Source: Escherichia phage vB_EcoM_SA20RB
Sequence record: OL960581
Strand: one strand, 5' to 3'
Length of the DNA stretch: 64,000 nucleotides
The position numbers were made by a program, and so were the translations under genes. Below, piece by piece: positions 28,493-38,449 of this stretch; the first letter of the stretch is position 1, and each line of letters opens with the position of its first letter. The notes beneath the pieces were generated by a model, which worked only from the letters and a program-made list of their open reading frames with translations, did not search any database and was not told the DNA's origin.

Positions 28493-28813
28493 TTATTCTT
28501 TAAATCTAATCAATTTATTCATAGACTTTGTAACTTCTGCACGAACCTCATGTAGGTTTTTAAGCTGTTCAAGACGCTGCTCATAGTAAGCAATTTCATC
28601 TTCTTCGAGACAGTCCTGTGAATCTTCTTTAAGATAACGTGCATAGTCCTGGAAAGCTTTACGGACTACTTCCTGGAAGTCATCAAGACTTTGAATTTTC
28701 TTAGGAGCAACAGATACACGACGAGGGGCAGTATAATACTCATAACCAAACCCTGCGCTTAATTGGGCCATTAATATTTTTCCTCTGGTTGGAACACAGC
28801 ACGACAAGCCCAC
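28493..28813 (-). CDS. Hypothetical protein (vs.3 position)
   Basis: ORF-track 106 aa. Confidence 0.5.
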
Positions 28814-29037
28814 ATACTGGCTTCTTTGAGTTTCGTTTTAGCAATAGTTAACTGATCGAGACTTTCAGCATAATTCTTCGCGAATTCACAGTCTTCACAA
28901 TTATTTAGTGCTTCCCAGAATTCATCATACAAAGCATCAAAGATAAGTCCTAAACGAACTTCAGCGTCTTTGATAGCATTCACTTTACCGATTTTCTCTT
29001 CAGTATGTGGTTTATAACCTTTAATGTCTTCAATCAT
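28771..29037 (-). CDS. Vs.4-position protein, possible Acb2-like cyclic-oligonucleotide sponge (by synteny)
   Basis: 88 aa helical acidic protein, second ORF after regB; assignment from memory that T4 Vs.4 is Acb2. Confidence 0.45.
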
Positions 29038-29251
29038 ATTTTACTTCCTCACCAGTACCTAAATCATATTCAACTAAACGAATAGGCTCATGAATGCCAT
29101 AACCCTGAACAGAAATTTCTGTCGTAGGATAAATTCCATCAATATCACCCATATTCCATGCTTCATTAAATTGCTGTTCGCCTGAATTACTAAACCACTC
29201 GGCGAAAGCATTTAGCACATCTTTAGAACCTTCAATAATTATCTTTGCCAT
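29030..29251 (-). CDS. Hypothetical protein (vs.5 position)
   Basis: ORF-track 73 aa. Confidence 0.5.
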   Translation of the reverse strand: MAKIIIEGSKDVLNAFAEWFSNSGEQQFNEAWNMGDIDGIYPTTEISVQGYGIHEPIRLVEYDLGTGEEVKYD

Positions 29252-29613
29252 TACAAACTCTCAGTAAAGGTACGAGCGATAACGTCGCGCTGCTGTTCCG
29301 GAGTTAGAGAGTTAAAGCGAACTGCATAACCGGATACACGGATGGTCAGCTGCGGATATTTTTCCGGATGCTTAACTGCATCTTCCAGAGTTTCACGACG
29401 CAGAACGTTAACGTTCAGGTGTTGACCACCTTCAATTTTAACTGTAGGCTGTTGCTCAATTTCAATTTCACGGGCATGCAAACCATAGAAAATTTCTGGG
29501 TCTACAAAAGAGTCCTCTTTAAAGGTTTTAGAGACAATAATTCGTGCTTGAATACCATCTTCAAAATAAATAGTACCTTTATGTGTGCCTTCAAGAATTT
29601 GATATGCTTTCAT
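29251..29613 (-). CDS. GrcA/YfiD-like autonomous glycyl-radical cofactor (vs.6 position)
   Basis: 120 aa; C-terminal [56 protein letters not shown] is a glycyl-radical domain signature. Confidence 0.8.
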
Positions 29614-29620
29614 ATAAACC

Positions 29621-29848
29621 TCAATTAGAAAATAAATTTATCCAAGATTGTTCTTTAATTAAAAATGGCTCAGAATCATATGCCATTAAACTCTGTGTGA
29701 TTAGTCCTTTAAAAGGCCCATCAATAAATTCCATGGTAAAATATGGAATTTTATTCATTAGCCGTGCATTAGGAGCCGTGCACAAAACTCTGCATCCTTT
29801 GAATACGCCTTTTTGTAATTTGTATTGCTTAGGATAAAATTCGCTCAA
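29621..29848 (-). CDS. Hypothetical protein (vs.7 position)
   Basis: ORF-track 75 aa. Confidence 0.5.
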
Positions 29849-29948
29849 AATGTTATTTTTTTTGCCAAAATTTCAAAATGATTCACCAATTTATTTTTAA
29901 TAGTTTTTGGTGAAAAATAAAGATATTCGAAAAGCTGAGTGTCTGTCA

Positions 29949-30491
29949 TCATTGCATTCCGATTACGAAAAACTGCGGACGAGTAATACCACCAATGCAG
30001 CATTTACTATTGCAGCAGTGTTGCACAGTTTCAATATGAATATCGTAAATTTTATCCATATCAGGAGATTTAACAGGCTCATCGATTATATACAAAATTC
30101 GAGAAAGCGATAAACCTCTGAACTTGCTACCTCTATTACCAACAAAACTACGGACAGAATCAGTAAATAAACGGAATCGAATATCATCGCTAGAATAACG
30201 AGAAAATTCTTTTTTAATGCGGCCCGCAGAAATTTTAGCGTAAGCTGAAGTATTAGAAAGAACAATAACTGTTCCACCATCATACAACCAATTAGCGGCA
30301 AAATTAGTTACTGCAGTTGATTTACCAGATTGTCTGCCACCATCTAAACGAAGTGTACAATATTCTTTAAATAAATGCGACGAATCAGGTACATAAAATC
30401 CACTATTACAAATTTCTTCTACTCTAGCATCAGAATGGTGTGTAAAAGCATTCATCAGGGATAGATAAGGACCAGTTAAAAATGTTCTCAT
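29949..30491 (-). CDS. Small P-loop NTPase-like protein (Walker A GGRQSGKST, Walker B-like ILYIIDEP)
   Basis: 180 aa; motifs read from the translation; sits where T4 has vs.8/denV. Confidence 0.5.
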   Translation of the reverse strand: MRTFLTGPYLSLMNAFTHHSDARVEEICNSGFYVPDSSHLFKEYCTLRLDGGRQSGKSTAVTNFAANWLYDGGTVIVLSNTSAYAKISAGRIKKEFSRYSSDDIRFRLFTDSVRSFVGNRGSKFRGLSLSRILYIIDEPVKSPDMDKIYDIHIETVQHCCNSKCCIGGITRPQFFVIGMQ

Positions 30492-30631
30492 TTCTTCTCT
30501 CTAAGTTTGGGCCATTCCATGGCGCATGAATTGTCCATTTCTGTATTTACCCATTACCGCACTTGGGCTCGACCTTATTACAGGTTGGCGGGAATCCCTC
30601 ACAGAATCATGAGGTCCAGGTTGTTCCCATA

Positions 30632-31105
30632 TTATTTGAACGATTTAACGTACTGAATAGAACCTTTACTATTCACGAAAGCGATTTTACCATTTTTATT
30701 ATACATGGTAGCAGTACGCTGATAGCCATAAGTTTGCTTACCAGATTGATAACCAACTAATGCAAAATTATCTTCACCCATTTTATTCTGTTTAGCACGA
30801 ATGCGTTCATGACCATGTGCCATAAGAACCTTAGCATCACCAGTTGCAATGGATCTACGAGTTTTTTCATCTTCAACTGTATTAACAAAGTCGTCAAATG
30901 AATCAAATTTAGCATGAGATTTATTATACAGTTTTCCATCTACTGCATAATTATATCCCTGTACATCCATCTCAACTTCTGTACCATCATCCAATACAGC
31001 AGTGATTTTCTGTCCTTTTTTAAATTTCAAAAGATCAGTAAAAGATTCAGCAATAATTTGAGAATTAATAGCTGCTTCAGTAATAAATTCTTGATATGTT
31101 TTCAT
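30632..31105 (-). CDS. Internal-protein-like protein with capsid-targeting-sequence-like N-terminus
   Basis: 157 aa; N-terminus MKTYQEFITEAAINS resembles the ipI leader MKTFKEFTST; occupies the T4 ipII/ipIII locus next to e; early promoter upstream. Confidence 0.55.
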   Translation of the reverse strand: MKTYQEFITEAAINSQIIAESFTDLLKFKKGQKITAVLDDGTEVEMDVQGYNYAVDGKLYNKSHAKFDSFDDFVNTVEDEKTRRSIATGDAKVLMAHGHERIRAKQNKMGEDNFALVGYQSGKQTYGYQRTATMYNKNGKIAFVNSKGSIQYVKSFK

Positions 31106-31159
31106 GTGTTTCCTTTAAATATTTTAATTAGTAATCTATTTATTTAAGTAACTGTGAAT

Positions 31160-31189
31160 ATACTATCACAGTTTTAGGAGAAAGTAAAC
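31160..31189 (-). promoter_or_regulatory. T4-type early promoter (-35 GTTTAC, -10 TAGTAT)
   Basis: Minus strand reads GTTTACtttctcctaaaactgtgaTAGTAT. Confidence 0.5.
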
Positions 31190-31193
31190 AACT

Positions 31194-32162
<969 letters not shown>

Positions 32163-38161: not shown

Positions 38162-38449
38162 TTACAAAAGATTTTTAGCAATAATCTTGAGATGTGCTGC
38201 AGAAATGTGTTTAGCTTTAAACAACGCAGTTTCTTCGGCAGGAGAGATAACGATTGTAGCACCATCCTTTTTAGCAGACCACCCATCACCTAGGTAAACA
38301 GTACCTTTGATTTCTTCGCCATCAACCAAGCTAATCATTGGTTTACCTTCTCGTCCTTTATTTGCTTTAATAACTTCAGAAGTAAGAGTAGCTTCAGTAA
38401 TAGTAGAAACCGGGGTAGTTGTAGAAGTAAATTCTTTGAAAGTTTTCAT
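38162..38449 (-). CDS. ipI: Internal protein I precursor (packaged head protein with capsid-targeting leader)
   Basis: 95 aa as T4 IPI precursor; N-terminus MKTFKEFTSTTTP; adjacent to 57B. Confidence 0.75.
   Translation of the reverse strand: MKTFKEFTSTTTPVSTITEATLTSEVIKANKGREGKPMISLVDGEEIKGTVYLGDGWSAKKDGATIVISPAEETALFKAKHISAAHLKIIAKNLL

Follow-up and report, generated by a model that had tools for sequence, protein, structure and literature searches.

Ip1, Ip2 and Ip3, which are internal proteins of phage T4, each block a different type IV restriction enzyme of the GmrSD type; phages T2 and T6 are devoid of Ip2 and Ip3 and subject to restriction by the GmrSD enzymes that these two proteins block, and the authors predicted that all proteins from both internal protein (ip) loci target GmrSD variants (PMC12373910). 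Loss of ipIII renders T4 unable to infect ECOR17 (PMC9391042), and Bas37_0260, another leader-bearing protein, inhibits McrBC (bioRxiv 10.1101/2025.11.20.689424). For packaging, the N-terminal ten residues of IpIII are sufficient; mutagenesis assigned the control of targeting to residues 4 and 7 and that of processing to residues 8 and 10, and cleavage by gp21, the prohead protease, takes place after L/I-X-E (PMC9026906). Promoter/stem-loop cassette boundaries (PeSLs) and hyperplastic regions have been described in T4-like genomes (PMC4122927). Here we analysed a stretch of 64,000 nucleotides (nt) from Escherichia phage vB_EcoM_SA20RB (OL960581), referred to as the window, in which the region between the lysozyme gene e and vs.8 carries ip4, a gene coding for an internal virion protein precursor, Ip4.

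Organization of the e-to-vs.8 locus

Every gene located between 27 and 34 kb of the window is on the minus strand, and the gene order is that of T4, namely vs, vs.1, regB, vs.3, vs.4, vs.5, vs.6, vs.7, an open reading frame (ORF) of 180 amino acids (aa), an ORF of 157 aa, e and nudE (Table 1). The closest complete genome was that of Yersinia phage fPS-2, with 96% identity over 24 kb, and the window is therefore derived from a Tequatrovirus that is a mosaic. On the flanks, e, vs.8, vs.7 and vs.6 are ordinary T4 orthologs. It is probable, in our judgement, that the window represents the T2-type allele of the 'e-to-vs.8' variable locus of the T4 family, with ip4 in the place where T4 has ipIII, ipII and denV, and with an anti-restriction role that we propose for Ip4. 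The analyses established the identity of ip4, its leader, its locus, the breakpoints of the swap, purifying selection on the gene and, from published data on an identical protein, association with phage particles.

Pairwise blastn against T4 indicated that 1,441 bp of the T4 locus (L001 4944-6384), which carry denV, ipII and the body of ipIII, are exchanged for 441 bp of the window (30633-31073), which carry the body of Ip4. Downstream, the homology to T4 extends over window positions 29600-30632 (L001 3907-4943) and ends at the ip4/denV stop codon. On the other flank it runs from position 31740 down to 31074, through e and the intergenic region and as far as nt 32 of the ip gene. The shared leader codons form the upstream one of the two boundaries of the swap.

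Comparison of the gene arrangements revealed that ip4 alone, as found in vB_EcoM_SA20RB, is the minimal one, and that upstream of ip4 the phages ime09, MLF4 and fD1 have in addition denV, a second ip gene or both. The order in MLF4 and fD1 is e - denV - ip4 - vs.8, that in ime09 is e - ip (RB69-like) - denV - Ip4 - vs.8, and phages ZX14, MX01 and Clarke_MM3 show further combinations of ip genes and denV. The e-to-vs.8 region is a well-known plastic region and its state in the window does not represent a new event. It resembles the PeSL-bounded regions in that ip and denV cassettes are present, absent or reshuffled between conserved flanks and in that a conserved hairpin lies over a predicted early promoter before the ip gene, but differs from them in that one breakpoint in the window falls within the leader coding sequence and not at a hairpin.

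Absence of denV from the window

T4 DenV gave no tblastn match over the whole 64-kb window (E up to 1e-3), in agreement with a first-pass annotation made from the sequence alone, which had seen no product resembling endonuclease V. T4 IpIII was likewise without a tblastn match over the window. T4 IpII gave a weak match (E 1.7e-4) located on the 157-aa ORF and corresponding to the shared leader. The gene denV is also missing from the T2 locus. That T2-type phages lack the ultraviolet (UV)-repair gene v (denV) has long been known, and the higher UV sensitivity of T2 relative to T4 is the classical observation by which gene v was defined; the absence of denV from a T2-type locus is therefore expected.

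DenV was found in 1,119 phage records, and its gene does not keep to one slot from phage to phage. The T4 gene is flanked by ipII and vs.8 (L001 4940-5356); the gene lies in MLF4 (L003 2915-3331) and fD1 (L046 5269-5685) between e and ip4, and in ime09 (L005 1575-1991) between another ip gene and Ip4. The MLF4 copy takes the place of window positions 31121-31145 only. Given these differing slots, denV behaves as a movable cassette.

One annotation in the neighbourhood deserves mention. The IME537 ortholog (L002 794-1114) of vs.3 (window 28493-28813, minus strand) is labelled 'putative pyrimidine dimer DNA glycosylase' by RefSeq. The vs.3 product of the window is 97% identical to T4 Vs.3, matched no NCBIfam family and had no similarity to DenV. 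The label looks like an annotation trap that could falsely hint at a substitute for denV.

Vs.8 and the P-loop ORF

The first-pass annotation had described the 180-aa ORF as a protein with the motifs GGRQSGKST and ILYIIDEP, and both were present as quoted. It had also proposed that this P-loop ORF stood in place of the T4 block. Alignment overturned this proposal: T4 Vs.8 (NP_049732) and the 180-aa protein share 157 of 180 residues (87%, E 3e-121, T4 residues 41-219), and the ORF is thus the ortholog of a gene that had been listed as missing. Both genes have the same place and orientation, with an end overlapping the start of vs.7, and the identity extends over all 180 residues. In the T4 record vs.8 sits between vs.7 and denV and is annotated as coding for 219 aa. 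Homology to genes of the T4 block was therefore clear for the P-loop ORF, in the form of vs.8, but did not extend to mature Ip4 when compared with IpII and IpIII.

The annotations of T4 and of the other phages differ at the N-terminus. T4 Vs.8 has 40 additional residues that are outside the ORF in the window and in the annotations of MLF4, ime09 and fPS-2, where vs.8 is given as 540-543 nt; in the window a TAG stops the extended frame nine bases before the ATG. Homolog clusters of Vs.8 (n=32) are mostly of 172-181 aa and share the start Met, with a few annotated as 194-196 aa, and because of this the start of T4 Vs.8 is probably over-extended by 40 residues. In the record of a phage T2 'escape mutant', PV648364 (L004 3004-3650), vs.8 is annotated as three small fragments.

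The 180-aa protein matched PHROG 1488, a family without assigned function (E 5e-78). Its Walker A motif is DGGRQSGKS (K57) and its Walker B motif IIDEP (D137, E138). In the Vs.8 family (23 sequences) G-R-Q-S-G-K57, E138 and two arginines are invariant and D137 nearly so; Walker A takes the form DGGRQSGK[ST], and within the IIDEP of Walker B strict invariance holds for Glu138 only. The AlphaFold2 model of Vs.8 had a mean predicted local distance difference test (pLDDT) value of 83.4, and Foldseek retrieved with it generic RecA-like, helicase, RecD and large-terminase ATPase domains, all with template modelling (TM) scores below 0.5. The comparison with large terminases gave a PHROG 2 match with E 1.6e-6 over about 100 residues, 15.1 bits against Pfam Terminase_6N (cut-off 22) and a Foldseek TM of 0.46 with the ATPase of the P74-26 large terminase. 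Vs.8 is best described as a conserved small predicted P-loop nucleoside triphosphatase (NTPase) that is separate from the swap.

The first-pass annotation had taken the two ORFs together as a novel two-gene cassette, made up of a P-loop ATPase and an injected effector, that replaced vs.8-denV-ipII-ipIII. Both ORFs are indeed adjacent and co-oriented. However, the P-loop ORF is the vs.8 ortholog in the T4 position and lies within unbroken T4 homology (window 29600-30632), and Ip4 accompanies vs.8 alleles that differ by 13-16% and is also found in gene orders that place denV on its other side, so that vs.8 and ip4 do not form one cassette. The alignment with T4 Vs.8 and the T4 homology map refute the two-gene cassette, to which we attach a negligible probability.

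Identity and distribution of Ip4

The 157-aa ORF, with its start MKTYQEFITEAAINS, was present as the first-pass annotation had given it. Database searches with both proteins assigned the P-loop ORF to PHROG 1488 and the 157-aa protein to Pfam DUF7412 (residues 1-157, E 6e-96, 319.4 bits, cut-off 27) and to PHROG 3155, 'internal virion protein' (E 6e-102). The name Ip4 was given to the gene in ime09. The suggestion that the 157-aa protein was a candidate novel effector could not be upheld, as it is already annotated as Ip4, DUF7412 or PHROG 3155 in T2-type phages; Ip4 together with Vs.8 in the T2-type allele of this classic variable locus is an already known object.

Ip4 was found by tblastn in 470 phage records, 290 of them with at least 99% identity, and was 100% identical in T2, RB33, teqskov and fD1. 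In T2, RB33, ime09, fD1 and other Tequatrovirus the protein is identical or at least 99% identical, lies at the same e/vs.8 locus and has the same leader. A further group of 160 records showed 60-80% identity, and among the matches listed were T4-like phages of Klebsiella and Salmonella. By the same measure IpIII was found in 261 records and IpII in 198, and the window allele is therefore commoner than that of T4. Among the leader-bearing proteins that the e-to-vs.8 locus encodes, Ip4 is the commonest.

The Ip4 family is narrow: 5.8 billion proteins contained 14 clusters, none of them below 61% identity. Among 1.84 billion representative proteins the search yielded four full-length members, one of them a close homolog already seen and the other three distant (P0047, P0048 and P0049) with leaders of the MNFxxFLNES type; the remaining three matches were two fragments and one spurious repeat match. 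A large number of Gly, Tyr, Asn, Lys and His residues do not vary across the family. Alignment of ip4 with its T2 counterpart revealed 11 nt differences in 474 and no amino-acid change, which indicates that ip4 is a real gene under purifying selection.

Leader of Ip4 and association with virions

Alignment of the first ten residues, MKTYQEFITE, confirmed the resemblance to the leaders of T4 internal proteins and the Glu-Ala site reported in the first-pass annotation: nine of ten residues are those of IpII and IpIII, and the targeting and processing residues are kept, Tyr4, Phe7, Ile8 and Glu10 being the same as in IpIII and followed by Ala11. In T4 record X04567, residues -10 to -1 of IpII and IpIII are annotated as a removed peptide. 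The gp21 motif is represented in Ip4 by I8-T9-E10/A11, with a second candidate at I18-A19-E20/S21, and both Glu10 and Glu20 are invariant across the Ip4 family. The 157-aa protein has a bona fide capsid-targeting leader with a predicted Glu-Ala processing site. Cleavage after Glu10 would leave a mature protein of 147 aa, 16.5 kDa and an isoelectric point (pI) of 9.1, near the values of IpII (9.6) and IpIII (9.7). The gene sits between e and vs.8, one of two ip loci, the other being near gene 57B.

Ip4 resembles IpII and IpIII of T4 in locus, leader, gp21 site and the basic nature of the mature proteins, and presumably in a life history in which the protein is packaged, processed and injected. 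It differs from them in the mature domains, which show no detectable similarity.

The product g129 of Yersinia phage fD1 (HE956711) is 100% identical to the Ip4 of the window and was identified with liquid chromatography-tandem mass spectrometry in purified particles (published fD1 proteome), so that the 157-aa protein occurs in a published, though permissive, set of virion proteins. The vs.8 ortholog of fD1, g128, was not flagged as particle-associated in that proteome. The paper on fPS-2 contains no proteomics. The detection in fD1 is consistent with packaging of Ip4 and is not specific proof of it.

Proposed function of Ip4

An injected anti-restriction role is plausible because Ip4 has the leader, lies at an ip locus and was detected in fD1 virions, and we infer for it processing, injection and an anti-restriction target as follows. 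Ip4 would be synthesized as a precursor of 157 aa, directed by MKTYQEFITE to the prohead scaffolding core and cleaved by gp21 after Glu10 (I-T-E/A), possibly again after Glu20 (I-A-E/S). The mature protein, basic and about 16.5 kDa in size, would remain in the head with the DNA and be co-injected. In the host it would most likely bind and block one variant of a type IV enzyme, GmrSD- or McrBC-like, the proposed target being a modification-dependent enzyme that attacks glucosyl-hydroxymethylcytosine DNA.

That Ip4 acts as an injected inhibitor of type IV restriction is favoured because Ip1, Ip2, Ip3 and Bas37_0260 all inhibit type IV enzymes. We advance this step tentatively, because the mature domain offers no structural or sequence clue and because its near-invariance is unlike that of an arms-race protein. 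The GmrSD variants blocked by Ip2 or Ip3 restrict T2-type phages that carry Ip4, and Ip4 is therefore no replacement for the activities of Ip2 and Ip3.

Several observations weigh against an anti-restriction role. Ip4 is nearly invariant in Tequatrovirus, as judged from the 290 records mentioned above, and not diverse as a fast arms-race protein would be. The AlphaFold2 model built from 13 family members was unreliable (mean pLDDT 50.7) and lends no structural support to an inhibitor. Mature Ip4 without its leader was not similar by BLASTP to IpII (E 0.46) or IpIII (E 5.2), a search of solved structures in the Protein Data Bank gave nothing below E 0.6, and no entry of the anti-defence library was matched. 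The fD1 proteome is permissive, in that it called 113-137 of the 277 phage proteins particle-associated together with 672 host proteins, and as such is weak proof of packaging. No literature on the function or target of Ip4 was found.

Some of this evidence would suit a protein of another kind. Ip4 might mainly be a bulk internal head protein, basic and abundant, that neutralizes or organizes the packaged DNA or aids core assembly and has no specific host target. Its pI is near those of IpII and IpIII, lysines of internal proteins touch DNA phosphates in T4 heads (PMC3012670), and near-invariance over hundreds of Tequatrovirus genomes suits structural constraint better than an arms race. However, IpII and IpIII are equally basic and are nevertheless specific GmrSD inhibitors, and related phages have different or extra ip genes at the locus, so that head assembly does not depend on any one internal protein. 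We regard a bulk role as unlikely.

Slightly less likely again is that Ip4 is an injected effector directed at something other than a type IV enzyme, for example a different first-line defence that targets DNA, or a housekeeping protein of the host. The mature sequence of Ip4 bears no relation to those of Ip1, Ip2 and Ip3, and a defined fold or an active surface is suggested by the many invariant residues (Gly, Tyr, Asn, Lys and His). On the other hand, every leader-bearing protein of an ip locus with a known target (Ip1, Ip2, Ip3 and Bas37_0260) blocks a type IV enzyme, and no enzyme family was detected in Ip4, for which searches of PADLOC and NCBIfam returned nothing meaningful. Inhibition of a type IV restriction enzyme remains the reading that we prefer.

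A candidate structured RNA between ip4 and vs.8

The 140 bp that separate the ip4 stop from the vs.8 ATG are conserved and non-coding; the T4 annotation includes them in Vs.8 as its additional 40 N-terminal residues. In several comparisons their identity (94-98%) exceeds that of vs.8 itself, which is 84-87% identical to its counterparts in T4, T2 and fPS-2. Sensitive blastn revealed that the centre of the stretch is 88-95% identical in unrelated phages, namely the Vequintavirus phages Murica and HdK5, Pseudomonas phage PsgM04F and one entered under the name Campylobacter phage C14, and pattern scans located the motif at 16 loci in viral contigs and at 16 in metagenome contigs. Scanning of 100,044 bacterial and archaeal genomes gave 0 matches, and a bacterial RNA borrowed by phages was rejected on this basis. 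In the sampled genera of Tevenvirinae the element is directly upstream of vs.8, at the edge of the region of ip and denV cassettes, and in Clarke_MM3 it is upstream of the ip gene that precedes vs.8. In the other phages with transfer RNA (tRNA) genes found nearby, which are Murica, PsgM04F and four of the five metagenomic contigs, its place is inside the tRNA array or at most about 600 nt upstream, and it is co-oriented with the tRNA genes.

Alignment of the core (22-sequence model) showed that 28 of its 45 positions are invariant, and the covariance model detected exactly one copy per locus with 46-72 bits. The proposed structure of the core, ..((((((((......))))...(((.......)))..).))).., which consists of a closing stem and two small hairpins, is paired in 96.6% of cells, with double changes in 5 of 11 pairs and compensatory changes in all four pairs of the closing stem (CG/UA/GC and AU/UA/UG). 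None of 500 shuffled controls reached the observed values, and slid controls paired at 15-44%. The G-U pairs of the core are compatible with the vs.8-sense strand only. The sequences of the motif belong to a few related groups, hence the independent events are few.

Not all analyses favoured a fold. The thermodynamic stability of the T4-like copies was not unusual (z +0.78 and -0.72), and significant folding was seen only in the copies of the Pseudomonas phage and of the metagenomic contigs (z -3.0 and -3.7). The inner fold is ambiguous; an alternative version is possible, although one of its pairs fails in 12 of 27 sequences. A hairpin flush with the 5' side of the core, which to the eye seemed to covary, is not claimed, as the shuffle control, a crude one, gave a similar mean (4.6 bp observed, 4.3 bp shuffled). 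In the T2 'escape mutant' PV648364 a G-to-T change in the core breaks one hairpin pair, and the model score drops to 61 bits.

Other identities of the stretch were considered. Rfam 15 gave no match in window positions 29000-32000 or at the element in L007, L008 and L009 (E <=1), and ARAGORN detected no tRNA or transfer-messenger RNA at the 140-bp stretch. A coding sequence was rejected, since every frame is interrupted in at least one copy and the variable sites are distributed as 7/8/6 by codon position, without third-position bias. A remnant of denV was also rejected, as the stretch is homologous to T4 sequence downstream of denV.

The motif is thus a candidate, not an established, structured RNA. 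That the 140 bp constitute an undescribed, phage-specific structured RNA, and neither a spacer nor an extension of the Vs.8 N-terminus, is a tentative proposal, which draws on conservation and covariation in the alignments. The element might act as a small RNA that is stable, might bind a ligand or a protein, or might regulate vs.8 in cis.

Other features of the locus

The features of the locus are listed in Table 1. The T4 hairpin at the same place as the stem-loop between e and ip4 has UUGUGA/UCACAA, a compensatory change, and a hairpin like it stands in front of T4 ipII. The stem-loop overlaps the 'predicted early promoter' of fPS-2 (L006 11162-11191, equivalent to window 31160-31189), and by its position it resembles a promoter/stem-loop cassette boundary.

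Each half of the split vs.7 is 100% identical to T4 Vs.7 by tblastn. The A-run is A8 in the window (29856-29863), A6 in T4 and IME537, and AAATAA in MLF4. Either the A8 stems from a sequencing error in the homopolymer, or the frameshift is very recent.

The vs.5 gene (29030-29251, minus strand) contains a 73-aa ORF that aligns in two frames to the annotated 58-aa Vs.5 of T4. In IME537, MLF4, fPS-2 and fD1 vs.5 is annotated as 222 nt, the same as in the window, and therefore the T4 reference is the odd one out.

The second leader-bearing ORF of the window presumably has the sequence of T4 IPI. If so, vB_EcoM_SA20RB carries IPI and Ip4 and is without IpII or IpIII.

Table 1. Features of the e-to-vs.8 region of vB_EcoM_SA20RB and related elements; positions are those of the window unless a locus is named
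Feature	Position	Strand	Basis
vs.6 (GrcA-like)	29251-29613	minus	
vs.7, split into ORFs of 52 aa and 75 aa by a +2 frameshift in an A-run	29621-30003	minus	PHROG 2049 on both halves
vs.8 ortholog, 180-aa stand-alone predicted P-loop NTPase (additional strand catalytic E, ASCE, class)	29949-30491	minus	T4 Vs.8 identity, PHROG 1488, Walker motifs
Conserved non-coding stretch, 140 bp, ip4 stop to vs.8 ATG	30492-30631	minus	94-98% identity, six T4-like phages
Candidate RNA core, 45 nt, CCGCCAACCUGUAAUAAGGUCGAGCCCAAGUGCGGUAAUGGGUAA	30547-30591	minus	Covariance model R1, 70.7 bits
Further copies of the core	L007 1502-1546; L008 1496-1540; L009 1494-1538; L017-L045		
ip4, 157-aa internal virion protein precursor, 17.8 kDa	30632-31105	minus	Pfam DUF7412, PHROG 3155
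Capsid-targeting sequence MKTYQEFITE, codons 1-10	31076-31105	minus	9/10 residues as in T4 IpII and IpIII (MKTYQEFIAE)
Stem-loop AACUGUGA-UAGUAUAU-UCACAGUU between e and ip4	31150-31173	minus	Sequence inspection
e, T4 lysozyme gene, upstream flank	31194-31688	minus	97% identity to T4 lysozyme; Pfam Phage_lysozyme match
Second leader-bearing ORF, 95 aa, begins MKTFKEFTSTTTPVSTITE followed by A	38162-38449	minus	Sole other leader-bearing ORF in the window

Significance

The locus described here is a rediscovery of the T2-type allele of a classic polymorphic locus. The RNA-like motif beside ip4 may be new, as it has no Rfam match, is unannotated in the records examined and is apparently confined to phages. 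The target of Ip4 is a tractable question. Because Ip1, Ip2, Ip3 and Bas37_0260 all block type IV restriction enzymes, Ip4 is the obvious next candidate after them, and the published screening with wild hosts from which the O-antigen barrier has been removed is directly applicable to it.

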